DNA of 64,000 nt from contig CAVUAK010000001.1 in assembly GCA_963739455.1 (NCBI GenBank), forward strand, positions 231,300 through 295,299. The letters run 5' to 3'. Position 1 is the first letter of the stretch, and the number at the start of each line of letters is the position of its first letter. Positions 4,745 to 22,268 of this stretch are shown piece by piece. The notes beneath the pieces were generated by a model. The model was not told where the DNA came from and ran no database searches. It saw nothing but the letters and a program-made list of their open reading frames with translations. A program made the position numbers and the translations under genes. The stretch is from an uncultured Gemmatimonadales bacterium. GTDB taxonomy: Bacteria > Gemmatimonadota > Gemmatimonadetes > Gemmatimonadales > GWC2-71-9.

Positions 4745-5911
4745 CTACGCCCTCCGCATCAGCGAAAGCACCAGCTCACTGAGGATGAGCAACACGATGA
4801 TGATCTCGAGCGCTTGCGACCGCGCCGCCACCGCCATGTCGTTCAGTGCCTCGGCCATGGTGCGGGCCAGCATCAGCTTGCGCTCCACACTCTGCCGCCA
4901 TGCCGGTTCATTCATCACGTCGAGGACAGCCCGGTAAATCCTCGCCAGGTAGATGTCATCAGTAATGCGCAGCGCGTTGGTTGCCTGCTCGATCAGGCGC
5001 GAGGTCTTTGCGGTGAGCTGGTGGACTTCCGTCACCAGCCGCTGCGAGCGGCGCGCGAACAGCGCGCCCGGGCCTACACCCATCGCCGTGGCACGGGCTT
5101 CGAGTTGCGGGACCCGGCTTTCCAGGATCGCATCGTACACTTCGAGTTCCAGCAGCTGCGCATTGGCAAACTCGATCAGGAGCTCGACGTCGTGGTCGGT
5201 GGCGTCCGGCTCCACCACAAGAGCGGCGTCGTAGGCAACGATGGTGCGGTCCAGCTGCGTGTATCGAAAGTCTCGCCCGAGCAGGCTCTCGCGCGCCGCC
5301 GGCGCCAGCGCCCGCGGCTCGCCGAGCAGAAGGCGTGGGATATCCGATTCGCCAAAGTCCCCCTCTGGTTCGCGGCTGAGCCGCAGGATGGCATACTCCT
5401 CGTTCACCGGGCTTCGATCCGGCTCCTGGATCGCCGGACCCAGCAATGACTCCACGCTGCTCACGAGCGGATCACTCCAACCCCGTGTGTCAGCCCCGTG
5501 GATCATGTCGGCAATCACGGGTACGAGCTCCGCCCAGCTCTGCTCCGGTTTCCAGGTCAGGATGCGTCGACAGCTCACCACGCCGAAGTCGTAAACCGCG
5601 ACATGCAGCGCCTCCGACCACCCTGAGGGAGCGGCTGCCCCGGATAGGCTGGGCAGCTCCTCCGAGAAGTCGAGAATCAGGGGTGGTACCGGGATCCGGA
5701 TGCTTCCCTTGGCCTCGTTGCGACGCAGCACCGGACGACGACCCGCCCGCCCCGCCGAGCGTATCCGTGCCTCGGCGATCGCAAGATCAATGCGTTCGCC
5801 AACGTCAACCAGCTGTGTCAGGGTGAGCATTCCCGGCGGGGCGATGGGCATCGTGTACGATAGCCACTCAGCCGAACTTGCGCGCCGGAGCCGAATCACG
5901 CCGCCCGTCAT
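4745..5911 (-). CDS. DUF155/RMD1 (YagE)-like protein with a C-terminal TM helix
   Basis: 388-aa ORF. The overall pattern and the C-terminal ...SQALEIIIVLLILSELVLSLMRRA anchor are typical of DUF155 proteins (recalled, not searched). Confidence 0.4.
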   Translation of the reverse strand: MTGGVIRLRRASSAEWLSYTMPIAPPGMLTLTQLVDVGERIDLAIAEARIRSAGRAGRRPVLRRNEAKGSIRIPVPPLILDFSEELPSLSGAAAPSGWSEALHVAVYDFGVVSCRRILTWKPEQSWAELVPVIADMIHGADTRGWSDPLVSSVESLLGPAIQEPDRSPVNEEYAILRLSREPEGDFGESDIPRLLLGEPRALAPAARESLLGRDFRYTQLDRTIVAYDAALVVEPDATDHDVELLIEFANAQLLELEVYDAILESRVPQLEARATAMGVGPGALFARRSQRLVTEVHQLTAKTSRLIEQATNALRITDDIYLARIYRAVLDVMNEPAWRQSVERKLMLARTMAEALNDMAVAARSQALEIIIVLLILSELVLSLMRRA

Positions 5912-5914: not shown

Positions 5915-6292
5915 CTAGTCGCTCCCACCGATCAGGACTGAGATCTCCATGGGCGAGATGCCCTCGCTCGGGAGGTCGAGCGTGGGCGCGTGACACACGT
6001 GGTTGACCTTGACCCAATACCTGCCGGCCGGCACGTTGCGGATCGTCACCATGTAGGAATGCTCCTCCAGGTTGGCGGCGCTCTCCGCACCCTCGTAGCG
6101 CGCCACCACATGCAGGTTGATCTTCTGCCGATGGCGGTTCGCGTGTGCGCTCAACGCCCATCGGCCCATCCCCACGCTGAGGCTGCCGCGCACCACCACC
6201 GTTCCTGGTCCACCTTCCGCTCCCACACTCGGACGCCCAGTCGCTGCTGCGCCAGTCTGGCTCTGGAACTCCGTCGGAAGCCGGTGCGCCAT
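5915..6292 (-). CDS. small hypothetical beta-sandwich-like protein, last gene of the TBDR operon
   Basis: 125-aa ORF whose ATG overlaps the upstream stop as TAATG (6290-6294). The YMVTIRNVPAGRYWVKV strand pattern is CarboxypepD_reg-like. No signal peptide. Confidence 0.5.
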   Translation of the reverse strand: MAHRLPTEFQSQTGAAATGRPSVGAEGGPGTVVVRGSLSVGMGRWALSAHANRHRQKINLHVVARYEGAESAANLEEHSYMVTIRNVPAGRYWVKVNHVCHAPTLDLPSEGISPMEISVLIGGSD

Positions 6293-8397
6293 TACCAGCC
6301 CACCGTCCAGCCGGTGAACCAGGGAACCACGTTGCCTTCGATCGGGGCACCACCCGTGTAGGTGAGCGTCGGATCGAAGAAGCCGGTGATCGGAATCGGT
6401 CCGCCGGTCGATGCCGCGCTACCGGGCATTGGACGGAAGTCGGGCGTGAGCGTCAGGAAGGGTGCGGCAAGGCCGGGGTTAGTCACGATATTGCCGAGTG
6501 ACGGGGTCAGGGCGTACGCCGCCTCATCGATGCAGTCCACATCGTCTGAGAAGTTGGGCTGTCCCTGGAAGAAGATGCTTGCCCGTACCGTGAGGCTGTC
6601 CGCTGTAAGCGCACAGCCTTGTGCCCCATCGATCTGCAGGCCGGCGCCGGAGGTGCGCAGGATGACCGCATTGCTGATCAACCCGCCGGTGCCGTGGCCA
6701 AGCAGCAGTCCCGGCGCATTCGTCTCCGTCCCCAGCGCGCCAATCACCGTGAGGTTGTAGATCGTCGGATACGTGAGGCGACGCGCCGAAGCGCTTCCGT
6801 CCGCGTTGCTCCCCAGCACCGCTGGACTGGCCGAGGCAGGCTGCTGCACGATCACGTTCTGGGCTCGGCCCTGCCATCCGTTGCTCCACCGGAGCCCGGT
6901 GCCAAGGTTGCCGGTCAGGAGCACCGCCCGGAATTCCGCACGGCCGCCCGACACGTACATCCCGTCACCGAAACTGTTGGCCACCTGGATGGTGTCCATG
7001 ACGGTGCCGCTGCCCACGCCAAGCAGCGACAGGCCCGGCGTGATGACGCCCTCTGCCGTCGCCATGCCGGCATTCTCGATCCTCACGTATCGCAGGGTGC
7101 CACTGTTGAACCCGTCCTGGCATCCACCGTAGTAGCCAAGGTTCCCCGGCGACGCTTTCTGCGGACAGGGCTCGATCTCGTTTCCACTGCTCATGCCGTC
7201 ATTGTTGAGCACTCCAGGACCGTTGATGTTGAGCCCGCCCCAGCAGCCGGGATGCATTGATGGCGTGCAGCTGAATACCACCGGCTGCAGTCGGGTGCCG
7301 ATCGCGACGATCTTCGCGCCCCGCAGGACGGCCAGCCTGCCGGCGGTCGCGGTCTGCCCCTCGATGCGCGTCCCGGCCTCGATCGTGAGCGTCACACCGT
7401 TCTCCACGCTCACCACGCCATCGAGTTCGTAGACCGTGTCGCGTCGGAGCGTGCGATCCGCACTGATGACGCCGCTGAGTACCGCACGCAGGCCCGGCAC
7501 CACCCGGCCCGGAATCGGTCGTCCCACAATTGGTGCCGGCTGGCCCACCGACGCATTCGCGATCGCAAGGGCATCGAGCAGGTTGATCACGAACGTTCCG
7601 TTCAGCTCCCGGCCCGGCGGATTCGCATCGTCGGGCTCGCCAAGGCCTGGCAGGTTGGCCGGCTCGACGTTGGCCGCTATGACGTTGTCATTGGCCGCAT
7701 TGGTGATCAGCGACTGGCTCCCGACGCCAACGTCCGCCGCCGCCAGGGCATCGAGCAGGGTGATGGAGCCGTCCAGCGTCGCGTCGCCGTAGATGGTGCC
7801 GGCGCCGGCCACGAACACGATCGACCTGGCCGGCGCCCGCTCACCGAGTTCCACTGCCCAGGCGTTGATGTCCATCATCCGGCCATCGGACCGCGGCAGT
7901 CCATTGTCCACCTCGGTCCCACCATGCACCACCAGGACGACAAGCCGTCCATCCGCCCCGACGCTCAGCGTCGGGCCCAGCCGCAGCGCGTCCGCGTAGC
8001 CCGGCGCGAGCACCCGGAAGGTCAGGACCACCATCCGCTCGGGGAGTGGCCCCAGCCCGAAAGTGATCAGCCGAAGCCGGGAGGACGGTGAGTCCTGCGT
8101 TGCTGCCATGGTGTAGCTGCCGGGTTCCACGATCTGGCCAGCGTACGCGAGCTGGCGCGAATCGAAGAGCAAGTCGGCTTCGAGCCCGCGCAGCCCACGG
8201 TCGAGGCCCCGCGCGCGAATCGCGACGGCGACCACCGCACCGACCGGCGCGGCGCGATCGGACACGACCACTTCGAGCGCAGGGGCATCCGAGGTGGCGT
8301 CAGGCTCCGGCGGCACATCCCGTCCACAACTCGCGAGTGCTATCGCGAGCAGCAGCGAGGCCAACACGCGCGGCGCGGCCAGCGCAGAATGCCTCAC
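6292..8397 (-). CDS. surface lipoprotein: cohesin-like N-domain, dockerin-like EF-hand pair, beta-helix-like C-region (paralog of 9708..12131)
   Basis: 701 aa. Lipobox LAIALASC. GDATLDGSITLLDAL and LNGTFVINLLDAL segments. FGDGMYVSGG..LRWSNGWQGRAQ block shared with the 807-aa paralog. C-terminal VPWFTGWTVGW. GTGA overlap with the upstream gene. Confidence 0.7.
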   Translation of the reverse strand: MRHSALAAPRVLASLLLAIALASCGRDVPPEPDATSDAPALEVVVSDRAAPVGAVVAVAIRARGLDRGLRGLEADLLFDSRQLAYAGQIVEPGSYTMAATQDSPSSRLRLITFGLGPLPERMVVLTFRVLAPGYADALRLGPTLSVGADGRLVVLVVHGGTEVDNGLPRSDGRMMDINAWAVELGERAPARSIVFVAGAGTIYGDATLDGSITLLDALAAADVGVGSQSLITNAANDNVIAANVEPANLPGLGEPDDANPPGRELNGTFVINLLDALAIANASVGQPAPIVGRPIPGRVVPGLRAVLSGVISADRTLRRDTVYELDGVVSVENGVTLTIEAGTRIEGQTATAGRLAVLRGAKIVAIGTRLQPVVFSCTPSMHPGCWGGLNINGPGVLNNDGMSSGNEIEPCPQKASPGNLGYYGGCQDGFNSGTLRYVRIENAGMATAEGVITPGLSLLGVGSGTVMDTIQVANSFGDGMYVSGGRAEFRAVLLTGNLGTGLRWSNGWQGRAQNVIVQQPASASPAVLGSNADGSASARRLTYPTIYNLTVIGALGTETNAPGLLLGHGTGGLISNAVILRTSGAGLQIDGAQGCALTADSLTVRASIFFQGQPNFSDDVDCIDEAAYALTPSLGNIVTNPGLAAPFLTLTPDFRPMPGSAASTGGPIPITGFFDPTLTYTGGAPIEGNVVPWFTGWTVGW

Positions 8398-9677
8398 TGG
8401 AACGTGTCCATGTCTTCGATCCGGGTGAAATTGCCCCGCGCATCCACCACATACAGGATGATGCCGTACACGTCGGTGTACGCGATGCTGTTGCCTAGTG
8501 GCAGGTCGGGCACCTGCGTGCCGAGATAGCCGGGTGTGTTGTAGATGCCGATGTCCTGCTTGCCATCGGGCGGGCCCAGGATCCCGTCCCGCAGCACCGC
8601 CGCCACGAAGAAGCCCACCTGGTCGCCCTCCGGATCCGCAACGGAGAAGTGCGTCTTGAGTACGTCTGGGCCGTTCAGCACCGCGTTGAAATCGCTGACA
8701 CCCGGGCGTGATCCCGCCTCGTCCCGGAGCGGCTGCTCCACCGTCACCGACGTATTGCCGAAGTTGTCGTCCACCCGGAGCGAAGCGCAGCGCCCGGCGA
8801 GCTCTGCGTCCGGCAGCCCGACCTCGAACGCCCCGATGATCGTCGCCGAGTCCGCGAACCCCGTGCGCCCATCGAGCAGCCCGCCCCGCACGCGCACACC
8901 GCCAGGCAGCACTGACGCACCGTGGCAGTCCGTGATGTCCCAGTAGTAGTTGGTCAGGTTTCGGTTGGGTGAGGTGACCCGCGCAATGAAGACGCCCGCC
9001 CCGTCATGGTACGATGGGTTGAACGACAGGATGGAGGGACGCTGCGTCGGCGACGAGCAGATGGCGTTGAAGCTGACGTCGGTCCCGCCATCCTCGCTCA
9101 CGGTCACCGTGCGTGACGAACCGCCGTCGTTCACGAAGGTGCAGTTGCTGCTCACGTGCTGCAGCGAGACGGTATACGTGCCTGCCGGAAGCTCAGGGAG
9201 CAGTACCGCGGAGTTTGCGCCGACCACTCCATGTGCCTCGGCGGCGGCCCCACTCACCTGCCACACATACATGCTGTCGTTCGCGACACCAGTGGTGTTG
9301 ACGGTGATGCTCAGCGACGCACCGCACACCACGAAGAACCGGCTCAGTGCCGTGTTGGTGCCCTCCGGAATGACGAGCACATCCGTCGTGCCGTACCGGC
9401 TGCGGCATTGTGTCGGAAGGTCCTGCAGTTCGATCGAGTAGGTTGACGGCGCTACCGAGAGGATGATGGTGTCGGTCGGCGCCGCCGTGATCGTGGTGTC
9501 GAGCATCTTGAGGGTGGAAAGGTCGCGCACGTGATACCGGTACTGTTGTGCCAGCTGGGTACCCTGCGGCTTTGCCACGATGGCCAGGTACGGTGGTCCT
9601 GCCGATGATGGCTCTGCCGCGTTGCTGCACGCAGCAAGTGCCCCGGCTGTGAAAAGCAGCCGGAGCACCCGCCACAT
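8394..9677 (-). CDS. lipoprotein with Cys-bracketed Ig-like repeats, unknown function
   Basis: ORF 8394..9695 (TTG). ATG 9677 gives MWRVLRLLFTAGALAAC (lipobox). Modules such as PAGTYTVSLQHVSSNC...VSFNAICS. Confidence 0.65.
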   Translation of the reverse strand: MWRVLRLLFTAGALAACSNAAEPSSAGPPYLAIVAKPQGTQLAQQYRYHVRDLSTLKMLDTTITAAPTDTIILSVAPSTYSIELQDLPTQCRSRYGTTDVLVIPEGTNTALSRFFVVCGASLSITVNTTGVANDSMYVWQVSGAAAEAHGVVGANSAVLLPELPAGTYTVSLQHVSSNCTFVNDGGSSRTVTVSEDGGTDVSFNAICSSPTQRPSILSFNPSYHDGAGVFIARVTSPNRNLTNYYWDITDCHGASVLPGGVRVRGGLLDGRTGFADSATIIGAFEVGLPDAELAGRCASLRVDDNFGNTSVTVEQPLRDEAGSRPGVSDFNAVLNGPDVLKTHFSVADPEGDQVGFFVAAVLRDGILGPPDGKQDIGIYNTPGYLGTQVPDLPLGNSIAYTDVYGIILYVVDARGNFTRIEDMDTFQ

Positions 9678-9707
9678 ACACACTGCCTTGTTCAACTGCG
9701 CACTACC

Positions 9708-12131
9708 CTACCGGCCGGTCGGGGTGGACCAGCCCGTCCACCATGGCAGGCTGCCCGGGCCGGTCGCGCCCAGGTAGGTCGCCGAGACGTCGAAGAAACC
9801 GTCGTTGGGTGGCGTGGCACCGGTTGCCGTCGCCGCGGCACCGATCGGCGTGTAGTTCGCGATCGTCGTGAACGGCGACGCGATGAAGCTCGTCGTCGCA
9901 CCCGCCGGAACCGCCATGGCATTGCTCGGGTAGGTGATGGTGCCAGCCAGCCCGTAACCGGGGAGGAGGCTGTAGTCCTGCGTCCCGCCGGTGTACCCGA
10001 TCCACGTCGCTTCCAGGTCGCTGTTAGCGGCGTTCACCGTGTACTGACCACAGACCGTGCCAGGCGTCGGCAGGACTGGGTCCCCGGTGTCACCATCGCC
10101 GTTCGCCGAGTTGCCGAAGAACATGGCGTTGCGGAACGTCAGCGAATCCTTGGCGATCACCTTGCAGATATCCTGCGACAGCACCAGGCCGGCAGTTGCG
10201 CCAGCGGGCTGGTCGATATCGAGACCCGCCTTCCAGCCACCGACCAGGAAGTTGCGCAGCGTCCCGCCGGTGTTCTGGCGCAGGATGACACCCGCCGTAA
10301 CGGAGGAGGTGGTCGGGTCCGGCGCGCCCAGCAGCGTGAAGTTGTAGAGCGTCGGCGCCGAACGCGGCGCTGCTTCCGGGTCGGTCCCGTTGCCGTCGAT
10401 GCCGAAGTTGTCGGCCTCGATGCCACGATCACAGCCGGTCTGGCAGCCGCGCACGATCACGAACTGCGCCTTGCCCCGGTAGCCAGCCACCCAGTCGAAT
10501 CCGTCATCCTGGGTGCGGTTGATCACGAGGTGCTTCACGTTCACGGTGCCGCCGAAGAACTCGACGCCGTCATCCAGGCCGTTGTCGGTGCTTACGTAGT
10601 CGATGGTCGTTCCACTGCCGATGCCCTGCAGCGTGAGCGAGTTGCGCTCGTTCGTTGCCGTGAAGCGCGTACCGGCGTTGACGATGCGAACGTACGTCAG
10701 GCTGCCGCTGTTGTCGGCCGGGTCGTTGCCGCCGTAGGGGCCGGTGTTGCCCTCACCGGTCGGGCAGATGCCGCCCGAGCCCGCACCGCGACCGGCCTGG
10801 TCGCCCGGAACCGTCACGGCCGGACAGGCGGAGCCGTTGTTCACCGGCGCCAATCCGTTGATGTAGACACCGCCGAAGCAGCCGGCGCCGAACGGGCCAC
10901 CGTTGGTGGCCGAGGCCACCGGCTCATAGCAGTTGAACTCGACCGGCTTGAGGAACGTGCCATTCGCGAAGATCTGCGAGTTGCGGTCGATCACCAGCGT
11001 GTTGCTGTCCGACAGCACCAGAGTGCCCGGCCCGATCGTGAGCTTGGCGCCGGTGACGTTGCAGACCGGGTTGGCGCCGGTCGGCTTCGGGATCACCCAC
11101 ACATGCGTGGAATCCCACGTGGTGTTCACCGTGATCGGGCAGCTCACCACCTGCTCCGAGGCCAGCGCGCCGCGGCCGGCGATCTGCTTGCCGGCCACCG
11201 GACGGGTGCCCGGGGCCACCGCTTCGTTCGCAATTTCGAGCGCGTCGATCAGGTTGATCGTGCCCGAGTTCGGGTTGCTGCAGCTCTCGAGGCCGGGACG
11301 GCAGGCACCAGCGAGGCCACCGTTGGTCGGCTGCACGTTCGCCGCCACCACCAGGTCCTTGCGTGATGCACTTCCGATGGCTCCATCAGTGCCCTGGATC
11401 GCGAACAGGTTGCCCACCGCGACGTTGCTGACATCGAGCGCATCGGCGAGGGACACGCCGCCGCTCAGGTTCACGTCACCATACTTGAGGTTGACGAGTC
11501 CCAGGTCGCCCGGGTTGGCGCTGATCGGGCCGGTCGGCCGGTAGCCGGCGTCGAGCAGCCCCTGCCAGTCCTGCACGGTGAGGATGCGGGCCGACTCCGG
11601 CACGCTGAAGTTCCCCACTCGCACTTCCGGATCCACGTTCGCTCGCTTCACGTACAGCAGCTGCTGGCCTGCGGTGCCACCGATCTCATAGTCGAACTTG
11701 AGGCTCGCCGCGTAGTTGGCACGCGTCACTTCGAACAACAGCACCGATGCGTGCTCCGGCAATCCCGCCGGGTTCAGCACGCCCAGCCGCAGGCTGCCCT
11801 CACGCGCCGCGGAGGCGTTGACGATCGTCGCCGTCGAGCGATCCTCCGGCTGGCCCACATAGCGGAGCGCCGCAGGACTGAAATGCAACGTGCCCTGCAG
11901 GGCGCCCAGCGACTTCCCGTCGATCTTCCCGACGCGAAGGGCCACGGCCACGCGCTGGCCGACCGGCGTATTCAGGTTCGAAACCTCGACCGCGAGGTTC
12001 ACATCCTGGCTTGACTCGGGCACCGCCGCCGGCTCGCTCGGCACGCCATGGTCGCTGTTACAGGCAGCGGCCAGGACGAGTCCGGCGGCGACCAGCGCGC
12101 GCTCGAATCGTGAGTTGAGGTGCAATCGCAT
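9708..12131 (-). CDS. surface lipoprotein: cohesin-like N-domain, dockerin-like EF-hand pair, beta-helix-like C-region
   Basis: 807 aa. Lipobox LVLAAAC. GDVNLSGGVSLADAL and NPNSGTINLIDAL segments (D/N-x-N-x-S/D-G-x-I/V-x-x-x-D). DDGVEFFGGTVNVKHLV..DDGFDWVAGYRGKAQF block. C-terminal LPWWTGWSTP. GGAGAA Shine-Dalgarno upstream. Confidence 0.7.
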   Translation of the reverse strand: MRLHLNSRFERALVAAGLVLAAACNSDHGVPSEPAAVPESSQDVNLAVEVSNLNTPVGQRVAVALRVGKIDGKSLGALQGTLHFSPAALRYVGQPEDRSTATIVNASAAREGSLRLGVLNPAGLPEHASVLLFEVTRANYAASLKFDYEIGGTAGQQLLYVKRANVDPEVRVGNFSVPESARILTVQDWQGLLDAGYRPTGPISANPGDLGLVNLKYGDVNLSGGVSLADALDVSNVAVGNLFAIQGTDGAIGSASRKDLVVAANVQPTNGGLAGACRPGLESCSNPNSGTINLIDALEIANEAVAPGTRPVAGKQIAGRGALASEQVVSCPITVNTTWDSTHVWVIPKPTGANPVCNVTGAKLTIGPGTLVLSDSNTLVIDRNSQIFANGTFLKPVEFNCYEPVASATNGGPFGAGCFGGVYINGLAPVNNGSACPAVTVPGDQAGRGAGSGGICPTGEGNTGPYGGNDPADNSGSLTYVRIVNAGTRFTATNERNSLTLQGIGSGTTIDYVSTDNGLDDGVEFFGGTVNVKHLVINRTQDDGFDWVAGYRGKAQFVIVRGCQTGCDRGIEADNFGIDGNGTDPEAAPRSAPTLYNFTLLGAPDPTTSSVTAGVILRQNTGGTLRNFLVGGWKAGLDIDQPAGATAGLVLSQDICKVIAKDSLTFRNAMFFGNSANGDGDTGDPVLPTPGTVCGQYTVNAANSDLEATWIGYTGGTQDYSLLPGYGLAGTITYPSNAMAVPAGATTSFIASPFTTIANYTPIGAAATATGATPPNDGFFDVSATYLGATGPGSLPWWTGWSTPTGR

Positions 12132-12206
12132 GGATCACGTTCTCCAGTCTTCGGGTGATTCCGGACCCGGCCAGTGCTCCTGGCCGGGCCGGAATGAACT
12201 GTTGGT

Positions 12207-14147
12207 TCAGGGCGTGGTCGGGATCGTGGTCGACCCGTCGTTGCCCTGCACGAAGGCGCTCACGTTGATCGTGCCCGTGGTGATCGCGTTGTAGATGTTG
12301 ACGTCGAAGGCCGAGAGCGCGGCGGTGGTGGCCAGCGATGCACCCGGGAGCAGCTCGAACGTGCATGAGCCGATCGGGATGTTGGCGCTGTTGGCGACAC
12401 CAGTGCCTGCCTGGACCGCACCCGGCACCAGCACGCCCGGGGTGGCGGTACCGACGGTGAAGATCGTCCACGCCCGGCCCGGCGCGCAGTTGGACGTCGG
12501 GTCGTTGTCGAGGATCTGGAGGCGCGACGTCGGGTAGGTCGAGTTGAACTGGATCGTGTTCAACCGGTCCGTCGCCGCTTCCGTCGCGTCGTTGCGCGTG
12601 CTCATGTCGATGCGCCACGAGATCGTGATCAGCTGCCGCGCCTGGCCCAGCGCGTTGGTGCCCGCCGTAACCGGGCTCCACGTCGCGTACGCCTGGTAGA
12701 ATGACGGGGCCGGTGAGCAGGTCACCGCGAATGACACCGTCTGCGCCGCCGCGCCGGTGAGCCCGCTGTAGTTGGCCGCCGTCGCACCGGTGAAGCTGGT
12801 CGGCGTGCAGCTGGCCGGAATGCCGGTCACCGACACCGTGCCGGCGCCGCCCGGGGCGACGTACTGCACCGCGCTGCTGAAGGCACCAGCGGCGCTCGGG
12901 CTGATCGTCACCGGCGGAAGGCCGGCACCGGTCGGCGTGATCGTCACCGACGCGCCCGCGAGCGACGGCGCCACGGCCAGGCCACCGGCCAGCGTGACGT
13001 TGATCGTGCCGTTGACGGTGCCGGTCAGGGCGCTGCAGGTGACGCTGACGTCGGGCAGGGAAACAGTGCCGGCAGTGCTGATCGCCGGGACCGCGACGCC
13101 AGCCGGGGCAACGCAGCCGCTCGGCAGGTTGGTCAGCGTCAGCGTGCGCGCCGGACCAGCCGTCACATTGTTGATGATGAGGTTGTACGCCGGGGCGGCC
13201 GCGTTCGTGCTGACGCCGCTGAAGCCGCCGGGGGCGATCGTGCCCGTGGCGCCGGTGATCACGCCGATCTGCGGGGAAGACACCCGTGCCTGCACCGTCG
13301 CCGTCACCGCCGGGCCGCTGTTCTGCAGGTCGGCCGCGGTGAGGATCAGGGAACGGAAGTTGGAAACCGTCGCGTCGATGATGTAGCCGACCGTCTGGGT
13401 CGAGCTGCTCGCCAGCGGCCCGAGCGGGGCGCCGAAGGCCTCGTAGCGATAGCAGTCGTTCGCCGCTGCCGCTGCGCAATCGCTGTCGTTGAACCAGTTC
13501 CACGGCGCGCCGTTGAGCGCCGCGGTACCGTCGCCATTCCAGTCATCGCTCGTGGTCACTTCGCCCCGGTTCGGCATCACGATGATCACTTCGTTCTGGC
13601 TGCCGGTGGCGCCGCCAGTGGTCGTGGTCACGTTGTTGGCGAAGGGGAAGCTGTAGATAGCCTGTGCGGTGAGGCTCGGCGGGGTCGGAAATGCCACGTT
13701 GCTGTTGCCGCCTGGACGGACCAGCTGCACCCCGCTCAGCTTGTTGGTCAGGGTGATGTCGAACGTCACCCGGATCTTGCCCGGGGGGGCGTTCACGCCC
13801 GGCAGGCCGGCGTTGAAGTTGGAGGCCGTGATGTCAATGACGTCACCACCCTGCAGGCCGGCGTTGATGTCCTTCGACACGCCACGACCCTTCCCGGCTG
13901 ACCCGATGCTCCCGCTCAATCCCGTCACGGGCGCCGACACCTTCACCGTCTTCTTCGCGACGTTCACGTCGAACACAAACGCTGCCTGGTTGAACTGCGG
14001 ATTCGGTGCCGGGTCACCCGGAACGTCCGGGCCGGCGGGCGAATCGGACTTCGCGCTGCAAGCGCCGAGTCCGAGTGCGGCGGCGGTGACCAGCATGGTC
14101 ATCGTGCGCGCGTTGACGCCCCGGTTGAGGGGGAAACCGAGAAACAT
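12207..14147 (-). CDS. lipoprotein with Cys-bracketed Ig-like repeats and a C-terminal cohesin-like domain
   Basis: ORF extends to 14294, but ATG 14147 is preceded by AGGAGG and gives MFLGF..MTMLVTAAALGLGAC (lipobox). The C-terminal ...TIFTVGTATPGVLVPGAVQAGTGV... matches a motif in the 801-aa protein. Confidence 0.65.
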   Translation of the reverse strand: MFLGFPLNRGVNARTMTMLVTAAALGLGACSAKSDSPAGPDVPGDPAPNPQFNQAAFVFDVNVAKKTVKVSAPVTGLSGSIGSAGKGRGVSKDINAGLQGGDVIDITASNFNAGLPGVNAPPGKIRVTFDITLTNKLSGVQLVRPGGNSNVAFPTPPSLTAQAIYSFPFANNVTTTTGGATGSQNEVIIVMPNRGEVTTSDDWNGDGTAALNGAPWNWFNDSDCAAAAANDCYRYEAFGAPLGPLASSSTQTVGYIIDATVSNFRSLILTAADLQNSGPAVTATVQARVSSPQIGVITGATGTIAPGGFSGVSTNAAAPAYNLIINNVTAGPARTLTLTNLPSGCVAPAGVAVPAISTAGTVSLPDVSVTCSALTGTVNGTINVTLAGGLAVAPSLAGASVTITPTGAGLPPVTISPSAAGAFSSAVQYVAPGGAGTVSVTGIPASCTPTSFTGATAANYSGLTGAAAQTVSFAVTCSPAPSFYQAYATWSPVTAGTNALGQARQLITISWRIDMSTRNDATEAATDRLNTIQFNSTYPTSRLQILDNDPTSNCAPGRAWTIFTVGTATPGVLVPGAVQAGTGVANSANIPIGSCTFELLPGASLATTAALSAFDVNIYNAITTGTINVSAFVQGNDGSTTIPTTP

Positions 14148-14290
14148 GCGACCTCCTGAAGTTGGTGGGCTGGCGACTGCGGTTACCGCAGCGACCACAA
14201 GATCCCGCCCACCACACACAGCACGGTGATTCCTCTGTAGCACGTTGATAAGCGACGGAGGCGCAATCGGTGACACCGTTGTGATGTCGC

Positions 14291-16696
14291 TCACGGCGCG
14301 GTGAACGTTCCCTCGACCACGCGCGTGAGCGAGCCATAGCTGAAATCACCAGTCGCCGGCGTGCCTAGCAGCGCGCCGAGGATGCTTTGTGTCGTTGTCG
14401 TGGTACCTGGCGCACCAATGACATCGAACTTCACCCGTGCGATCGGTACCACACTCTGGGAGTTCTGCGCGGTCACCGATCCGCTGAAGCTGATGTCACC
14501 CTGCGGCGCGTTCGTGAAGTTGAACCCGCCCGGTGTACCCGAATCGATGTTGAGCGCGAAGAAGCGAAGCACCGCCGGGTCCCACTTGAGGCGCACCACC
14601 GCCCACGCGGCGAGCGCCTCCGGCCCCGGGGTCTGCGGGATATCAGTGGTCAGGTCGAACAGGATGGTCAGCGTCACCTGGCCGTTCACTACCGGCCCGA
14701 AGGACGATGACCAGGTGAAGGGTTGCCCGCCGCCACCTCCTCCGTCGGAGATGGTGACGCCGGCCGTGGCCGAGTTCTGGGCGCCGGAGTTGTCAGTCAC
14801 CGTGAGCGTCGCGGTGTACGAGCCCGCCGCGGCATAGGCATGCGGGGCGACAGCGCCACTGCCCGTGGCACCGTCACCGAAGTTCCAGGCATATGACACG
14901 ATGCTGCCGTCGGGATCGCTCGACGCCGAGCCATCGAACGAAATCGACGCCCCGACTGACCCGGCATACGGGCCGCCCGGACGTGCGATCGGTGGCAGGT
15001 TGCCTCCACCGCCGCCCTCGCTGATCGTCGCCGTCGTCGTCGCCGTCGAGCTGGCACCGAGGTTGTCGGTTACCCGCAGCGACACCGTGAACGGACTGCC
15101 GCTGGTGCTGGTGTACGTATGGCTCGGCGTTGGCCCGATCGCGGTGCCACCGTCGCCGAACGACCACTCATAGGTCGCAATCGTTCCGTCGGGATCCGAC
15201 GATCCCGCGCCGTTGAACGCGATCGGCGATCCCACGGTCCCGCTGTACGGACCACCCGGTGCCGCCACCGGCGGCTGGTTCGTGCTGCCGCCACCAGTCC
15301 CCACCGTCAGCGTCGCTTCCTGCTTGCGCACCTGATCCGAGATGTTGAGCACCTCAGTCGGGTTTGCGGCGGTGTTCGCACTGACCTCGATGCCGGTCGT
15401 CTGCGTCGTGAACGTGGCGCCGTTGGCGGCTCCCGGGAGCACGGTGAAGTACAGCCTTGCCACGGTCACCAGCCCCGGCACGCCAAGGCCCGCCTTCACG
15501 CCGCCCGGGATGACCTGACCCGGGGTTGCCGTGCCGACGACGAAGATCGTGTTCAGCTGGCCCGCCAGCGCACTGTCGTACTGCACCACCGCCTGGTCGA
15601 AGGTGATCGTCGCCTGGGCCGTCGTGGCCCGCTTGTCCGGCTCGGCGCGCAGGTCGAGTTGCACCAGGAGCTCAACCACCGAACCCGCCGGTGATGTCGC
15701 CGGAGTGAAGGTGCTCGTCAGGATGAACGGCTTGTTGCCCGCGTCGGGATCAGTGCAGGTCACCGTGAAGGTGCGTTCGGTGGTCACGCCCGCCGTCACC
15801 GGTACGTCATCCAGCGTGGCCCCACCTTCCACCGTGCAGTTGTCCGGCACCTCCTGCAGCAGCACCTGGTAGCTGCCCGGCCGGAGCCCCGTCAGCAACT
15901 CCGTGCTGTTGGCGCTCGATGTCGTCTGCTCGATCACCACCGCCTGCAGTGAATCGGTGATCCCGACCACCTTGAGGTGATAGTTGGCCGGCAGGTCGTC
16001 GCCCGTCGTCGCGATCGTGAGCTTGAGGTCGCCCAGCGACGGATCGCTGCACGACACGAGGTAGGACACCGCCTGCACCGTGTTGAGCCCCTGGTCCGTG
16101 ACGGTGACATTCCGCTGAAGGCTGTCGACCGGGACACAGTTGGGCGCGAGATCGCCCAGGACGATGTGATACGCGCCCGGCCGGAGCGGCGACACGGTCC
16201 TGGTGCCGGTAGCATCCAGCTGCACGACCGCGGTGTCCGTGGCACTGCTGATGTGCGCCTCGAACCCGTCCGGGTCGAGCGCCACGGCCGGTCCCTGGGT
16301 CTTCGTCTGGATCGTGATGCCCGGCAGCGGCGGGGTGGACGTTCCCGACACCGTGGTGAAGCCGAGGCTCGAGCCCTGGCGATCGATGACCTCGAGCCGG
16401 TAGCCGTAACGCGTGTCCGGCCGGACTGCCTGGTCGAGGTATTCGCTTTGGCTGCGATTGACGTTGTCTGCCAGCAGGTCGAATGGCCCGGTGAGGTTTT
16501 CCCTGCGGTACAGCCGGTAGAAGCTGGCGTCGTCCACCGGGGTCCACCGCACTCGGACTGACCTGAGGTTGAGGGCCTCCGCCGAGAACGGCATCGCGCT
16601 GGGTTCGGGCGCGCTGTCTTCGCCGTGGCATCCCGCAGCGACTAGCAGCAGCAGGCCGACGGTGTACCGGGCAATCGAGCGGAGGCTAGAACGCAT
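14291..16696 (-). CDS. multidomain lipoprotein: FN3, Cys-bracketed Ig-like repeats, two cohesin-like domains, two PKD domains
   Basis: 801 aa. Lipobox LLLVAAGC. FN3-like RVRWTPVDDASFYRLYRR. Two PKD signatures (SSDPDG.I..Y.W.FGDG...H.Y...G.Y...L.VTDN.G). The start overlaps the TBDR stop by 11 nt. Confidence 0.75.
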   Translation of the reverse strand: MRSSLRSIARYTVGLLLLVAAGCHGEDSAPEPSAMPFSAEALNLRSVRVRWTPVDDASFYRLYRRENLTGPFDLLADNVNRSQSEYLDQAVRPDTRYGYRLEVIDRQGSSLGFTTVSGTSTPPLPGITIQTKTQGPAVALDPDGFEAHISSATDTAVVQLDATGTRTVSPLRPGAYHIVLGDLAPNCVPVDSLQRNVTVTDQGLNTVQAVSYLVSCSDPSLGDLKLTIATTGDDLPANYHLKVVGITDSLQAVVIEQTTSSANSTELLTGLRPGSYQVLLQEVPDNCTVEGGATLDDVPVTAGVTTERTFTVTCTDPDAGNKPFILTSTFTPATSPAGSVVELLVQLDLRAEPDKRATTAQATITFDQAVVQYDSALAGQLNTIFVVGTATPGQVIPGGVKAGLGVPGLVTVARLYFTVLPGAANGATFTTQTTGIEVSANTAANPTEVLNISDQVRKQEATLTVGTGGGSTNQPPVAAPGGPYSGTVGSPIAFNGAGSSDPDGTIATYEWSFGDGGTAIGPTPSHTYTSTSGSPFTVSLRVTDNLGASSTATTTATISEGGGGGNLPPIARPGGPYAGSVGASISFDGSASSDPDGSIVSYAWNFGDGATGSGAVAPHAYAAAGSYTATLTVTDNSGAQNSATAGVTISDGGGGGGQPFTWSSSFGPVVNGQVTLTILFDLTTDIPQTPGPEALAAWAVVRLKWDPAVLRFFALNIDSGTPGGFNFTNAPQGDISFSGSVTAQNSQSVVPIARVKFDVIGAPGTTTTTQSILGALLGTPATGDFSYGSLTRVVEGTFTAP

Positions 16697-19394
16697 AGTT
16701 CACCGCCACGTTGAGGTCGACGCCGTAGCGCACCGACCCGGCGATGCGCTGTGCGTCGGAGGCACTCTCGTCATCGGTTTCCAGCAGCACCAGCGCGTTG
16801 GTCAGGTTTTTTCCATCGATCGAGAGCTGCCAGTGCTTGGACAGCCCGAACACGACCTTCGCGTCCAGCGTCTCGTGACCAACCTCGATGTAGTTGGGCC
16901 CCTGGGTCTGCCCGCTCAGCGCGCCGTAGCGGAACACCCGGTTCCCGAACCAGTTGAAGAGCAGCGACGCCGTGATGTTGGGCCGCTCCGCCTGGTAGAT
17001 GAAGTCGATGTTGATGAGGTAGGGTGACTGACCCTGGAACTGCAGGTCGGGCGAGAACACGCCCAGGCTGTCCGGCAGCGTAATCCGCGACCGCAGCAGA
17101 GTGACGTTGGCCTGCAGCAGCAGCCCGCGCAGTGCATGGGAAATGAACCCGAGTGACTTCTGGGCCTCGAGCTCGATGCCAATCGTCGAGCCCCGCGTCG
17201 CGTTGACCGGCAGCGACACGAACTCGCCGCTCTGGTATTGCACCACCGTCACGATCGGGTTGTCGAACTGCTTGTAGAAAACGCTCGCCGAGAGCTGCTC
17301 ACCCGCGCCCGGGTAGGTCTCGAACCGGAGGTCATAGTTGAGGATCGTTCCCGGCTCCAGCGCCGGGTTGCCGATCTCGAAGAGGCCGCCCACCACCGGC
17401 GGATAGCCGCCCGGGGCGAACTCCCTGAGCTCCGGACGCACGACCGTCTGCGAGAACGCCGCGCGAAGGTTGCTCGCCGGCGACACCGCCCACGTCAGGT
17501 TGACGGAGGGAAGCCAGTCGGTACTCGCCTTCGAGGGAACGCTCCCTGCATCGGTGGTATCCGCCAGGCGCACCGTGGCGTTCCACTGCTCCATCCGCAG
17601 GCCTCCCACGAAGCGAAGGCGCGGGAACACCTCCATGTCCGCCATCACGAACGCGGCGAAGACATCGTCGGTGCCGGAGTAGGGAAAGATGATGCCGCTG
17701 GTGGGAACGATCTGGATGAGGCCGTCGCTGCTGGCGCCCATGTTTTCCGGCGCGAACGCCTGTTCCGGCGGCAGCAGGCGCGTGGAAAGCGGAGCTCCGC
17801 CGGTGATCATCTGGTAGGCGGCGCCGTCCAGGTTGCGGTTCGTGAACCGCCCCAGCGCACCCACCTTGAATTCCGCGTCCCCCTCCTCACGCAGGGTGAA
17901 GGGCGTCGCGTACGAGAAGTCGCCCTGCGTGGTGATGTCGGTGAAGTCGTAGTTGTACCGGAAATTGGGAAACTGGTCCAGCAGCTGGAATCCCGGCCCG
18001 CCGGCCTGTGACACATAGGTCAGCTGGCGGTTGTCGTTGTCGCTCCGTCCTGCCCGGCCATACCCGGCCCGCCACTCCAGCCGCCCGTTGGGTAGCAGGT
18101 GCTCCCCCTCGACCAGGCCCTGGTAGATGAACCGCTCGATGAAGAACATCTGGTAGAGCTTGATCGCCGCGTCGTTCGGGTCGATGCGGACGCCCGAGCC
18201 GAGCGTGGAAGTGCTTGTCGATCCCGTGGTGTAGAAATTCTTGAACGACAGCTTGTTGCGGGAGCCAAGCCGGTAACTGAAGTTCGCGATCGCGCCGAAG
18301 TCGGCCAGCGCGGAGGCCACGTTGTAGGTGTACGCCCCCGAGCCCAGTGTGCTGTACAGGTCCGGCACGTACGTCCGCGCCGCCGAGGTGTTGAGCGCCA
18401 GTGAAAGGCCGAAGACATCCGACTGGCCGATGTCGAAGCTTGTGCCGAACGACGCCTGCAGCGATGCCGCGGGCAGCACGGTGCTGCTCGCCGGGGTCCA
18501 CACATTCGCGAATCCCTGCGAGAAGACCACCGGATCCGGGTTGGGCGGCGGCGTGGCACCCGCACCGCGCCAGCCTGGAAAGGGAACGTCCTCGAAGGTG
18601 CCGTTGCTGTTGTAGCCACCCTTCACCTGGAAGGTGAACTCCGTCTCCTCCGGGAACTCCTTGGTGCGGATGTCTGCCGATCCGCCGGCAAAGTCGCCCG
18701 GCCGGTCGGGCGTGGCCGTCTTCTGCACCACGAGTGCCTCGAGCAACGACGACGGGAAGGCATTGAGCGGTACCAGCTGCTTGTCCGGCTCGGGGCTCGC
18801 CACCTCGATGCCGTTCAGTACCGACGTGCTGTATCGCTCCGTGAGTCCACGAATGACGACCTTGTCGGCCAGCACTGCAACGCCGGAGACCCGGGTGATC
18901 GCAGCACCCGCGTCCGAGTCCGGTGTCTTGCTCATGAACTCGGCGCTCACGCCGTCACTCTCCACCGCAGAGTTCTTCTGTTCCGAGAGCAGCCCCGCGT
19001 CAGATGACGCCGCCTCGGGCAACTCGGCCGCGACCGCGAGCTCCTCGAGCTGCACTGTGGCCGTGTTGAGCGCCATGGTGATCACCGTCGTCTGGCCCGC
19101 CGTGACCCGCACGCTGTCCACCCGCGCCGGCTTGAATCCGAGCTGCCGCCCCGTCACCGAGTAGACACCCACCGGTAGTGCCACCGACCGGAAGCGGCCG
19201 TCGAGGTCGGACTCCGCCTTGCCGAGTTGTCCGGTTACCTCGATGGTCACTCCCTGCAGTGGCTTGCCGGAGCCGCCATCCACCACGCGTCCCGCAATCC
19301 TCCCGGTGGCAGCCGGCGCCTGTGCCGCAGCCACACGCGCCAGCCCCAGGCCGATGATCACGAGCCCGGTGAAGACCCGACATGTCACGCGCAT
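16686..19394 (-). CDS. TonB-dependent outer-membrane receptor with an N-terminal carboxypeptidase-regulatory-like domain
   Basis: ORF extends to 19466. ATG 19394 gives signal peptide MRVTCRVFTGLVIIGLGLARVAAAQA. GRIAGRVVD..GKPLQGVTIEV (CarboxypepD_reg). Plug-like ITRVSGVAV..VVIRGL..STSVLNG. Long beta-barrel ending ..VAVNYAF (terminal Phe). Confidence 0.85.
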   Translation of the reverse strand: MRVTCRVFTGLVIIGLGLARVAAAQAPAATGRIAGRVVDGGSGKPLQGVTIEVTGQLGKAESDLDGRFRSVALPVGVYSVTGRQLGFKPARVDSVRVTAGQTTVITMALNTATVQLEELAVAAELPEAASSDAGLLSEQKNSAVESDGVSAEFMSKTPDSDAGAAITRVSGVAVLADKVVIRGLTERYSTSVLNGIEVASPEPDKQLVPLNAFPSSLLEALVVQKTATPDRPGDFAGGSADIRTKEFPEETEFTFQVKGGYNSNGTFEDVPFPGWRGAGATPPPNPDPVVFSQGFANVWTPASSTVLPAASLQASFGTSFDIGQSDVFGLSLALNTSAARTYVPDLYSTLGSGAYTYNVASALADFGAIANFSYRLGSRNKLSFKNFYTTGSTSTSTLGSGVRIDPNDAAIKLYQMFFIERFIYQGLVEGEHLLPNGRLEWRAGYGRAGRSDNDNRQLTYVSQAGGPGFQLLDQFPNFRYNYDFTDITTQGDFSYATPFTLREEGDAEFKVGALGRFTNRNLDGAAYQMITGGAPLSTRLLPPEQAFAPENMGASSDGLIQIVPTSGIIFPYSGTDDVFAAFVMADMEVFPRLRFVGGLRMEQWNATVRLADTTDAGSVPSKASTDWLPSVNLTWAVSPASNLRAAFSQTVVRPELREFAPGGYPPVVGGLFEIGNPALEPGTILNYDLRFETYPGAGEQLSASVFYKQFDNPIVTVVQYQSGEFVSLPVNATRGSTIGIELEAQKSLGFISHALRGLLLQANVTLLRSRITLPDSLGVFSPDLQFQGQSPYLINIDFIYQAERPNITASLLFNWFGNRVFRYGALSGQTQGPNYIEVGHETLDAKVVFGLSKHWQLSIDGKNLTNALVLLETDDESASDAQRIAGSVRYGVDLNVAVNYAF

Positions 19395-20422
19395 CAAGGC
19401 TGGCTCGACGCGGCGGCGCTCACCTGGGTGGCAAAGGGCTCCGGCTTGGCTGCCGACTCCGGCCACTCACCGCGAAGGAAGGTGGCCGCGGCGGTATCGA
19501 ATGCCGGTTCCGCCCCCAGCCAGGGGAAGCCGAACGCCCCGGCGATGAACGCGACACGTGCGTTCGGCAGGTGCTGCGCCCAGCGGGTCGCCGCAGCCTC
19601 CACCATCTCGTTGCCCGATCCCTCGATCACCAGCACCGGTGCCGGGACGTCATTCAGCGCCAGCCGCCAGCTCCAATAGCCCAGCTTCGACAGCACCGCG
19701 TAGTTGATGCGCTCCACCTGCTCGATGCGGTCGTCGGGTGCGCTGCACACGCTCCTGCCCACCGTCCGTGTGTCGGCGCGTGGATCCTTGAGCGTGCCGT
19801 AGAAGAACGTCGGCCACACCACCCGGCATGCACGCGACACACTCTCCCCACGCCGCAGTTGCCCCAGCATCTGGGCCTCTCGGCCACGTCCGGTGGTATC
19901 GGTGCGCTGCATGCCGATCTCAAAGGCGAAGGAGGGGTGTACCACGAAGGGACTGACCATCAGGATGCGAGATACCCGATCCGGATGGCGTATGGCATAG
20001 AGAGCGCCCACCGCTGCACCCCAGTGGTGCCCGACCAGCGTGAGTCGCGAAAGGCCGAAGTGCTGACGCACCGATTCGAGGTCGGCCACGTCGGAATCGG
20101 GCGAGAGGGCAAGCGAGTCGGTCACGGCATCCGACCGCCCGCGTCCCCGCATGTCGTAGTAGATCAGTGTCCGCCCCGCCTGCAGCGCCTGGAGCGGTGC
20201 CTCGAGGTACACATGATCCACACCGGGCCCGCCATGCAGCACGACCACCGTGTCCGGCCCCGATCCAAGCGCGACGTATGACAGTCGAATCCCGCTCGCG
20301 GTTGTGACCGTTCCCTGTTCCCTGTTCCCTGTTCCCTTGGCGGTACACGCGGTTCCCGCCCATACCACGGCACACACGATGGACAGCACGCGTAGCGGAC
20401 TCATTGAATTCCCGGCTGACAT
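19394..20422 (-). CDS. alpha/beta hydrolase (proline iminopeptidase-like) lipoprotein
   Basis: ORF extends to 20500; likely starts are ATG 20422 or 20404 (MSPLRVLSIVCAVVWAGTAC). HGGPG oxyanion motif and GHHWGA nucleophile-elbow-like motif. Its stop shares a base with the TBDR ATG (TGATG, 19392-19396). Confidence 0.7.
   Translation of the reverse strand: MSAGNSMSPLRVLSIVCAVVWAGTACTAKGTGNREQGTVTTASGIRLSYVALGSGPDTVVVLHGGPGVDHVYLEAPLQALQAGRTLIYYDMRGRGRSDAVTDSLALSPDSDVADLESVRQHFGLSRLTLVGHHWGAAVGALYAIRHPDRVSRILMVSPFVVHPSFAFEIGMQRTDTTGRGREAQMLGQLRRGESVSRACRVVWPTFFYGTLKDPRADTRTVGRSVCSAPDDRIEQVERINYAVLSKLGYWSWRLALNDVPAPVLVIEGSGNEMVEAAATRWAQHLPNARVAFIAGAFGFPWLGAEPAFDTAAATFLRGEWPESAAKPEPFATQVSAAASSQP
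20311..20338. repeat. CCCTGTT-family heptamer repeat, 4 copies, inside the hydrolase CDS
   Basis: ttccctg x3 plus ttccctt read directly. On the coding (minus) strand it encodes KGTGNREQGT directly after the lipobox Cys. Confidence 0.9.
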
Positions 20423-22186: not shown

Positions 22187-22268
22187 ACACTCCGCGGGCG
22201 CGAGTTGGCGGGTAAGGTCCGCCGTCCGCGTCACGGATCAATGATGGTACCGCAACGTTCGTCTATCT

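Follow-up and report, generated by a model that had tools for sequence, protein, structure and literature searches.

A run of eight genes on the minus strand of a 64,000-nucleotide stretch from an uncultured Gemmatimonadales bacterium (GenBank assembly GCA_963739455.1, contig CAVUAK010000001.1, positions 231,300 to 295,299), here called the window, encodes a TonB-dependent receptor (TBDR) together with a series of lipoproteins, two of which are predicted to combine a cohesin domain, a dockerin-like module and a beta-helix. The reading which we favour, with moderate confidence, is that the locus is an uptake module composed of a TBDR and a beta-helix protein, which in its Gemmatimonadota version would be equipped with a lipid-anchored cohesin-dockerin cassette acting as a Ca2+-dependent connector. 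It builds on the gene order and its conservation, the predicted domain folds, the motif pattern and the adjacency of TBDR and beta-helix genes across phyla. The two lipoproteins, of 807 and 701 amino acids (aa) and referred to below as A-type and B-type, respectively, are paralogues over their full length (BLASTP 29% identity, E 2e-48).

The receptor and its beta-helix partner

The receptor consists of a signal peptide, CarboxypepD_reg, Plug and a 22-strand-type barrel (Pfam TonB_dep_Rec_b-barrel E 3.7e-29, CarboxypepD_reg E 7.3e-16, Plug E 7.9e-7), and as expected of a TBDR it scores above the cutoffs of PF07715 (30.0 bits, cutoff 23.9) and PF00593 (103.3 bits, cutoff 27). The NCBIfam model TIGR01782 matches with E 1.5e-73 and 248 bits, below its 310-bit cutoff, and the SusC model TIGR04056 with E 0.053; the receptor is of the TonB-Xanth-Caul rather than the SusC type. 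A first-pass annotation of the window had stated that a SusD-like partner is absent, and indeed a SusD/RagB-like protein was not found in any of the eight proteins with Pfam and NCBIfam. Nevertheless, the receptor does have a conserved partner, which that annotation had overlooked, because the pair of TBDR and Beta_helix_4 protein is widespread.

Beta_helix_4 (PF28492) has been assigned to the C-terminal halves of the A- and B-type proteins from precomputed Pfam annotations, which place the domain on all homologues, among them P0168 (identical to the 701-aa protein) and P0001 (92% identical), as well as on the gene calls for both window proteins in an identical contig. In the AlphaFold2 (AF2) model the C-terminal half of the 807-aa protein is beta-rich and repetitive. 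When relatives were sought with a full-length A-type alignment in one genome per species and their loci analysed by phmmer, full-length cohesin-dockerin-beta-helix proteins were encountered only in metagenome-assembled genomes (MAGs) of Gemmatimonadota/Gemmatimonadales. Relatives possessing only the beta-helix, on the other hand, occur in Kordiimonas, Sphingomonadales, Sandaracinaceae and other Myxococcota, Balneola and a Bacteroidota MAG, where they are named solely 'hypothetical protein' or 'lipoprotein'. A homologous TBDR directly adjoins the beta-helix gene in 31 of the 33 loci outside the Gemmatimonadota (phmmer E 1e-46 to 1e-100), the two exceptions being cut by contig ends, and the same adjacency is seen in two metagenomic contigs, Pseudoalteromonas and Flagellimonas, so that it spans at least five phyla.

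Bacteroidota relatives bear C-terminal sorting domains of the type IX secretion system (T9SS), and some of them join the beta-helix with PKD and chitinase-N domains. In Kordiimonas (L016:8899-20846, also L029 and L033) the pair is located inside a type II secretion system (T2SS) cluster, with a prepilin peptidase upstream and GspC, the GspD secretin, GspE and GspF directly downstream, and the Kordiimonas beta-helix protein may be a T2SS-exported surface lipoprotein. It is only these relatives, with their T9SS sorting domains or their location in a T2SS cluster, that point to surface exposure, and by analogy the beta-helix protein would be an extracellular conserved partner of the TBDR in place of SusD. 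In Pseudoalteromonas lipolytica (L048:2646-13466) the pair is found immediately downstream of a TonB2-type cluster encoding DUF3450, ExbB, ExbB, ExbD, TonB and a TPR protein.

The two beta-helices of the window differ in a set of twelve polar residues (N494, E495, N497, D520, D521, E524, D542, D543, D546, E572, D574 and N575). None of the 10 A-type sequences departs from this set, and about 14-17 of the 17 relatives with only a beta-helix retain these residues. In the 39 B-type sequences the majority have been substituted, as in D520G, E524F/Y, D542G and D546R/H. Every operon retains one A-type and one B-type copy, which suggests that the A-type subunit is active and the B-type subunit degenerate and structural.

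Within the Gemmatimonadota, the order TBDR, 801-aa, 695-aa, A-type, 433-aa and B-type gene is kept in five other loci (L002, L008, L014, L046 and L047) although the proteins are only about 40-50% identical to those of the window, and for this reason the gene order is beyond chance. The first-pass annotation had proposed synteny in related genomes as a check, and the six-gene core including the TBDR stands in all five. Shorter contigs all show the expected portion of the cluster, and even the 11-nucleotide (nt) overlap of the TBDR and 801-aa genes recurs in L002, L046 and L047. The hydrolase gene which precedes the TBDR in the window and the 125-aa gene which follows the B-type gene are usually near the cluster, at variable positions.

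The invariant residues could also belong to an enzyme. In a degradative locus resembling a polysaccharide utilisation locus (PUL), the A-type beta-helix would be a catalyst such as a Ca2+-dependent polysaccharide lyase or hydrolase, the TBDR would import the oligomers, the hydrolase would be an accessory esterase or peptidase and the lipoproteins with PKD, immunoglobulin (Ig)-like and cohesin-like domains would be surface glycan-binding proteins analogous to SusE/F; instead of pairing with each other, the cohesin- and dockerin-like modules would be spacers or would bind carbohydrate or Ca. The TonB-Xanth-Caul subfamily, to which the receptor belongs, has been linked to the scavenging of carbohydrates by Xanthomonas and Caulobacter; the invariant Asp, Glu and Asn rows lie on successive rungs of the beta-helix, and the single fold match under E 1e-3 that is not a cohesin is the beta-helix of a GH87 glucanase (7c7d_A, E 7.4e-4). 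The chitinase-N and PKD domains of Bacteroidota relatives fit as well, as does the consistently close hydrolase gene, a homologue of which is found near the cluster in L001, L002, L008, L014 and L046. The hydrolase itself matches Abhydrolase_1 (Pfam, E 1.5e-20) and, far under the model cutoff, TIGR01250 (E 5e-22), and has a distant similarity to the proline iminopeptidase (S33) family. Against such a locus, searches of the eight proteins with Pfam and NCBIfam for families of carbohydrate-active enzymes (CAZymes), glycoside hydrolases (GH) and polysaccharide lyases (PL) included, and of carbohydrate-binding modules (CBM) found none, the beta-helix family is without a characterised member, and the presence of the cassette on subtilases and RHS proteins (see below) is left unexplained. 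We regard a PUL-like function as rather improbable, noting that it is compatible with the assembly model and not exclusive of it.

The cohesin-dockerin cassette

While the beta-helix connects the locus with other phyla, the N-terminal halves of the A- and B-type proteins set the Gemmatimonadota version apart. The full-length AF2 model of the 807-aa protein has a predicted local distance difference test (pLDDT) score of 84-94 over approximately residues 40-195, and most of the C-terminal domain is modelled confidently too. In a Foldseek search of the PDB with this model, cohesins are the top 44 among the 50 best matches listed (E 2e-5 to 7e-4; target-normalised template modelling (TM) score up to 0.68), and the N-terminal domain is accordingly assigned the cohesin fold, a nine-stranded beta-sandwich of jelly-roll type. 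Pfam Cohesin (PF00963) matches 8 of 10 family members with a best E of 7.8e-6, and the homologue P0189 is named 'cohesin domain-containing protein' in its NCBI record.

A direct sequence search of the PDB with the 807-aa protein gave no match. With a profile of the N-terminal approximately 280 residues, on the other hand, cohesins and dockerins make up 27 of the 30 matches among the PDB sequences (E 0.003-10) and follow each other from N to C as they should, the cohesin chains aligning at positions 3-113 and the dockerins, 19 of the 30 (E 0.0085-8.6), at positions of about 160-213.

The module following the cohesin contains two segments, each a 12-residue EF-hand-type loop followed by a helix, which according to column statistics are kept in 129 family sequences. 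Segment 1 reads YGD[AV][NTD]L[DSN]Gx[VI][NDT]xxD-ALxVANVAVG and segment 2 [EDN]x[DCN]G[ST]RxI[ND]VLD-ALAIANEAVG; all 129 sequences have Asp at position 12 of each loop. The segments agree with the pattern of dockerin type I repeats, that is D or N at loop positions 1, 3, 5 and 9, D at position 12 and then a helix. When residues 193-299 of the 701-aa protein (about 107 residues) were modelled separately by AF2 with a 54-sequence alignment, the best model reached a pLDDT of 79 and a predicted TM score of 0.75, with helices at 22-32 and 81-91 right after the loops. Dockerins account for 26 of the 27 PDB matches obtained by Foldseek with this model, all with E >=0.1, the top one being 4uyq_B (probability 0.97, target-normalised TM-score 0.73, root-mean-square deviation 3.2 A). 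The paired dockerin-like EF-hands which the first-pass annotation had perceived in the two paralogues are thus recovered by motif, fold matches and profile matches alike. As sequence thresholds are missed and the linker between the segments is atypical, we call the module of the 807- and 701-aa proteins dockerin-like.

A generic beta-sandwich combined with generic EF-hand-like Ca2+ loops, neither homologous to the cellulosomal modules, could in principle produce such resemblance by chance, and the sub-threshold sequence scores of the window proteins, the E-values of 0.003-10 in the PDB profile search and those of 0.1-10 for the dockerin in Foldseek are in line with this. But the match lists consist nearly entirely of cohesins and dockerins, whether in the 44 leading places among the 50 best listed, in 26 of 27 or in 27 of 30, the matches are correctly ordered along the protein, Pfam Cohesin matches one family member with E 7.8e-6, and the two 12-residue loops, each with its invariant Asp 12 and subsequent helix, conform to what is known of dockerins. 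Chance resemblance is therefore very improbable.

The cassette is not restricted to this locus. Among 1.84 billion cluster representatives, the N-terminal cohesin-dockerin profile matches 656 with E<=1e-3 and 143 with E<=1e-30, the family thus comprising at least 143 clusters at 50% identity. A domain survey of the best 149 of the 656 representatives finds the cassette ahead of a beta-helix in 97, of Peptidase_S8 (subtilases) in four (P0085, P0106, P0135 and P0154) and of RHS repeats in two (P0126 and P0152), and at L006:7591-9978, in the gene following the B-type gene, it precedes an SBBP beta-propeller. Being attached to domains as different as these, the cassette is portable. Of 126 complete N-termini, 109 have a lipobox-like motif ahead of the cohesin. 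Tentatively, and with somewhat less than even confidence, the cassette may be a general Ca2+-dependent self-assembly system for surface lipoproteins of the Gemmatimonadota, which in this locus would wire the active and the degenerate beta-helix lipoproteins, possibly together with the 801- and 695-aa proteins, into a complex on the TonB-dependent transporter.

Several observations speak against a connector. At the sequence level, the N-terminus of the 807-aa protein of the window scores 14.2 bits with Cohesin (E 0.05), below the threshold of 24.1, and Dockerin_1 (PF00404) reaches at best 14.1 bits (E 0.054, threshold 22.9), in segment 1 only and in 4 of 10 members. The linker between segments in dockerin type I is typically about 8-18 residues; here it comprises about 45 residues, is itself conserved (AANVxPxNLPGLGEPxDAxPPG) and is thus far longer than in canonical dockerins. 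As to the models, the dockerin region has a pLDDT <50 in the full-length model, the other four dockerin-only models reach only 53-58, and the Foldseek E-values of the dockerin are 0.1 or worse. The modules of the 801- and 695-aa proteins, as detailed below, are weak as cohesins, and the searches for GH, PL and CBM families by Pfam and NCBIfam give no hint of a substrate from the enzymes. Furthermore, cohesin and dockerin occur in every carrier in cis, in one fixed order and about 20-45 residues apart, and a dockerin-only or cohesin-only partner was not found among the complete top matches (best 150 representatives). Cohesin-dockerin binding and self-assembly are, finally, pure inference.

Given the cis arrangement and the fixed order, an intramolecular unit is equally allowed. 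The dockerin-like module would then bind or pack on the cohesin of its own chain and so make up a stiff pedestal, stabilised by Ca2+, on which the beta-helix, protease, RHS or propeller domain would stand clear of the membrane; there would be no assembly between subunits, and the proteins of the operon would be independent or joined by other surfaces. In agreement with such a stalk, the two modules always come together, once each and in the same order straight after the lipobox, no complete single-module protein is among the best 150 representatives, and the short linker between the modules, with its invariant Pro-Gly and Trp, is consistent with a fixed geometry. However, the full-length AF2 model does not seat the dockerin confidently on the cohesin (pLDDT <50), the surface pattern D-A-L-x-[IV]-A-N-x-[AS]-V-G of the helix is conserved in both repeats, duplicated as in partner-binding dockerins, and the retention of a degenerate B-type copy in every operon is easier to explain by A-B pairing. 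We consider the stalk on balance unlikely, though it is a serious alternative to the favoured connector.

In the favoured connector model, the base would be the widespread two-gene module of a TBDR and an extracellular Beta_helix_4 protein, the latter occupying the place of SusD, BtuG or TbpB-type partners. In the Gemmatimonadota the beta-helix partner would have been duplicated, with the A-type protein keeping the near-invariant Asn/Glu/Asp row, probably as a Ca2+-dependent ligand-binding or lyase-like site, and the B-type protein, which has lost most of these residues, probably being structural. Both would be lipid-anchored and carry, between anchor and beta-helix, the cohesin and then the dockerin-like double EF-hand as a Ca2+-dependent protein-protein connector. 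Through cohesin-dockerin binding, either reciprocal or in chains, A and B would be linked to each other and possibly also to the cohesin-like modules of the 801- and 695-aa lipoproteins, and the resulting multi-lipoprotein capture complex would be held beside the receptor, which would import the captured or released ligand. Surface exposure, cohesin-dockerin binding, the pairing of partners and the substrate are the parts of the model which we infer.

Gene layout, accessory lipoproteins and neighbourhood

The features of the run, delineated from open reading frame (ORF) coordinates and translations between positions 4745 and 20500 of the window, are collected in Table 1.

Table 1. Genes of the run and predicted domains of their products (positions in nt of the window; all on the minus strand)
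Feature	Position	Residues (aa)	Strand	Basis or remark
Alpha/beta-hydrolase lipoprotein	19394-20422 (ORF to 20500)		-	Pfam; lipobox AGTAC
TBDR	16686-19394 (ORF to 19466)	902	-	Pfam/NCBIfam
801-aa lipoprotein	14291-16696	801	-	lipobox VAAGC; Pfam PKD
 weak FN3-like domain		36-110	-	fn3 E 0.0083
 two Cys-containing Ig-like repeats		~125-320	-	common to the 433-aa protein
 cohesin-like module a	15338-15712	329-453	-	Cohesin E 8.7e-4
 two PKD domains	14753-15277	474-648	-	PKD_4 E 1.6e-45
 cohesin-like module b	14294-14734	655-801	-	hhalign
695-aa ORF	12207-14147 (ORF to 14294)	695, probably 646 from Met50	-	lipobox LGAC
 cohesin-like module c, C-terminal	12210-12722		-	hhalign
807-aa A-type lipoprotein	9708-12131	807	-	lipobox LAAAC; AF2, Foldseek
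 predicted cohesin	11547-12014	~40-195	-	AF2 + Foldseek
 dockerin-like module	11169-11525	203-321	-	profile/motif
 Beta_helix_4 domain	9711-11159	~325-807	-	acidic motifs intact
433-aa lipoprotein	8394-9695	433 (427 if the start is the ATG at 9677)	-	lipobox LAAC
701-aa B-type lipoprotein	6292-8397	701	-	lipobox LASC; paralogue of the 807-aa protein
 predicted cohesin	~7873-8283	~39-175	-	aligns with the 807-aa region
 dockerin-like module	7501-7821	193-299	-	AF2 + Foldseek
 Beta_helix_4 domain	6295-7485		-	motifs degenerate
125-aa protein without signal peptide	5915-6292	125	-	conserved; no family match
388-aa gene (ninth gene)	4745-5911	388	-	precomputed Pfam PF27233 MJ0711_N

The eight consecutive genes and the junctions reported for them by the first-pass annotation are exact. 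The stop codon of the hydrolase gene overlaps the start codon of the TBDR gene in TGATG (19392-19396) and that of the 701-aa gene the start of the 125-aa gene in TAATG (6290-6294), both read off the sequence, and the overlaps of 11 nt between the TBDR and 801-aa genes (16686-16696) and of 4 nt between the 433- and 701-aa genes (8394-8397) were derived from the ORF coordinates. The five lipoproteins after the receptor likewise have their lipobox in each translation, as has the hydrolase. Some statements need amendment. The claim that all genes are joined by short overlaps or small gaps holds for these junctions but not for the 801- and 695-aa genes, as the most likely start of the 695-aa ORF is Met50, so that the two genes are separated by about 140 nt instead of overlapping; the resulting 646-aa version is the gene call on the identical contig. 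The TBDR, said to head the operon, is preceded here by the hydrolase as first gene and heads only the conserved core, the hydrolase being located elsewhere in L046. The non-coding gap (14148-14290) corresponds to 170-300 nt in the orthologous loci L002, L046 and L047 and may be where an internal promoter or a regulatory RNA is situated. A scan for promoters and terminators returned 0 promoters and 2 terminator-like sites compared to 7.1 expected; the run may be co-transcribed.

The 801-aa protein contains both of the PKD domains that had been noticed at first pass, each strongly supported, while the FN3 domain is present as a weak match only. The cohesin-like domains proposed at the same time are borne out in the 807- and 701-aa proteins by model, fold matches and Pfam but are weak in the 801- and 695-aa proteins. 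Module a scores 19.9 bits with Pfam Cohesin, under the cutoff of 24.1, and Cohesin matches 2 of 9 module sequences of the 801/695 type (best E 2.5e-5). By hhalign, module a is related to module b with a probability of 97.5% and to module c with 83.5%, and the N-terminal cohesin of the 807- and 701-aa proteins to module b with 51%; a profile of the modules against the PDB has cohesins as its two best matches (E 0.7-0.9). These comparisons are suggestive of cohesin-like modules.

The 801-aa protein is related to the 695-aa and to the 433-aa protein (BLASTP E 1e-9 in both cases). The 695-aa protein, which has no Pfam or NCBIfam match and whose family profile gave nothing meaningful against the PDB, starts with an N-terminal domain lacking a family match, followed by CarboxypepD_reg-like/Ig-like repeats and module c. 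In the 433-aa protein, the two Cys-containing Ig-like repeats precede a conserved C-terminal domain of no recognised family; Pfam yields no match and NCBIfam solely a marginal adhesin-domain match (E 0.0028, far below cutoff), and orthologues exist at 10 loci with invariant Cys and Asp columns. Some genomes possess longer orthologues of the 801-aa protein, of 1025-1169 aa (L008:4344-7853, L014:4330-7812 and L046:1203-4280), with one PKD domain and not two, extra CarboxypepD_reg-like repeats and an added C-terminal module homologous to the 695-aa C-terminus (hhalign probability 100%).

The 125-aa protein has no family match in Pfam or NCBIfam and 28-36% identical orthologues in five Gemmatimonadota loci (L001, L002, L010, L014 and L046). 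The 388-aa gene begins 3 nt past its stop codon and encodes a C-terminal hydrophobic helix; it may be co-transcribed with the run here, outside the conserved cluster, as it is absent at the matching position in L002, L046 and L047. A 481-aa ORF (12058-13503, minus strand) in an alternative frame within the 695-aa gene is Arg/Gly/Pro-rich and most likely a spurious long ORF as expected at 67% G+C. Upstream on the same strand (20543-24825) lie two further ORFs, one of 563 aa without family match and one encoding an 841-aa protein of the Sulfatase family (E 6.6e-56), neither of which is kept with the cluster at other loci. A few kb downstream, the opposite strand (314-3744) encodes a PhoX-like alkaline phosphatase (E 2.4e-13) and, after it, a di-haem cytochrome c peroxidase/MauG-like protein (E 5e-31). 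A phosphate-related function, considered on account of the nearby PhoX and of PPK2 in two loci, was dropped because these neighbours vary between loci.

Relation to known systems and significance

The association of a TonB-dependent transporter with a surface lipoprotein, as in SusCD, BtuBG and TbpAB, is a major theme in nutrient acquisition, and to our knowledge all known lipoprotein partners of these transporters dock through idiosyncratic interfaces. For the Bacteroidota such complexes are well known, among them the 'utilisomes' with SusE/F-like surface glycan-binding proteins, BtuB-BtuG (PMC10404256) and XusAB (PMC13142918). In common with SusC/SusD-type systems, the present locus has a TonB-dependent transporter in an operon with several lipobox proteins expected at the surface, accessory lipoproteins rich in Ig-like and PKD domains, and one conserved partner gene beside the transporter across many genomes. 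A SusC/SusD PUL, by contrast, combines a SusD/RagB-like lipoprotein with a SusC-type TBDR, neither of which was found here; the partner is a beta-helix (PF28492) instead of a TPR-like SusD or a beta-propeller BtuG. Cohesin and dockerin modules, as present here, have not been reported in the Bacteroidota complexes, and the phylum is the Gemmatimonadota.

With the cellulosome of Clostridia and Ruminococcus the locus shares a predicted cohesin beta-sandwich, paired Ca2+-loop-plus-helix segments and the use of a portable cassette on varied functional domains, including enzymes such as subtilases. The differences are nevertheless substantial. Where the cellulosome has a scaffoldin and dockerin-bearing enzymes, cohesin and dockerin are here in cis, one each, no multi-cohesin scaffoldin is among the top matches, and no glycoside hydrolases or CBMs were found in the operon; the anchor is an N-terminal lipid rather than SLH or sortase, in a diderm host; and compared with canonical dockerins the inter-repeat linker has about 45 residues and binding is conjectural.

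Cohesin and dockerin modules outside cellulosomes are already on record for diderms (Peer et al. 2009 as cited in PMC6461901 and PMC10066038). From sequence, an outer-membrane-tethered cohesin-dockerin 'planctosome' has been hypothesised in freshwater Planctomycetes, one 'adaptor' protein of which bears both a dockerin and a cohesin (PMC6461901). Here as there, cohesin and dockerin occur in a diderm outside cellulose degradation and an outer-membrane complex is proposed from sequence alone. The planctosome model, however, is built round peptidases and has no TonB-dependent receptor, lipobox anchoring or beta-helix partner, whereas the cassette described here is part of a conserved TBDR operon.

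The pairs of TBDR and Beta_helix_4 protein in Pseudoalteromonas, Kordiimonas, Balneola, Sandaracinaceae and Flagellimonas have the homologous TBDR, the beta-helix, the invariant acidic motif and the immediate adjacency in common with the window, but are without the cohesin-dockerin cassette and the 801-, 695- and 433-aa lipoproteins, and many of them have the beta-helix in two or three copies or carry a T9SS sorting domain. A literature search retrieved no account of cohesin or dockerin modules on lipoproteins of TBDR operons, nor of the TBDR/Beta_helix_4 pair. The statement in the first-pass annotation that no system of such composition has been described is thus in agreement with the literature found, and is to be qualified by the diderm cohesin and dockerin modules and the planctosome already proposed.

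Independently of the cassette, the analysis has exposed an uncharacterised pair of TBDR and beta-helix protein that extends from Pseudoalteromonas and Kordiimonas to Balneola and Myxococcota, several hosts of which are culturable and tractable. If the cassette is a general self-assembly system, as tentatively proposed above, the beta-helix protein would be a new, phylum-spanning class of partner for TonB-dependent transporters, and the Gemmatimonadota locus would link, for the first time in a diderm, a nutrient-capture machine assembled by cohesin and dockerin with TonB-dependent import. A conserved operon with such partners would mean that diderms reuse the assembly principle of the cellulosome to organise their outer surface, and would open to experiment the cell surface of the Gemmatimonadota, an abundant soil phylum whose surface biology has hardly been studied.

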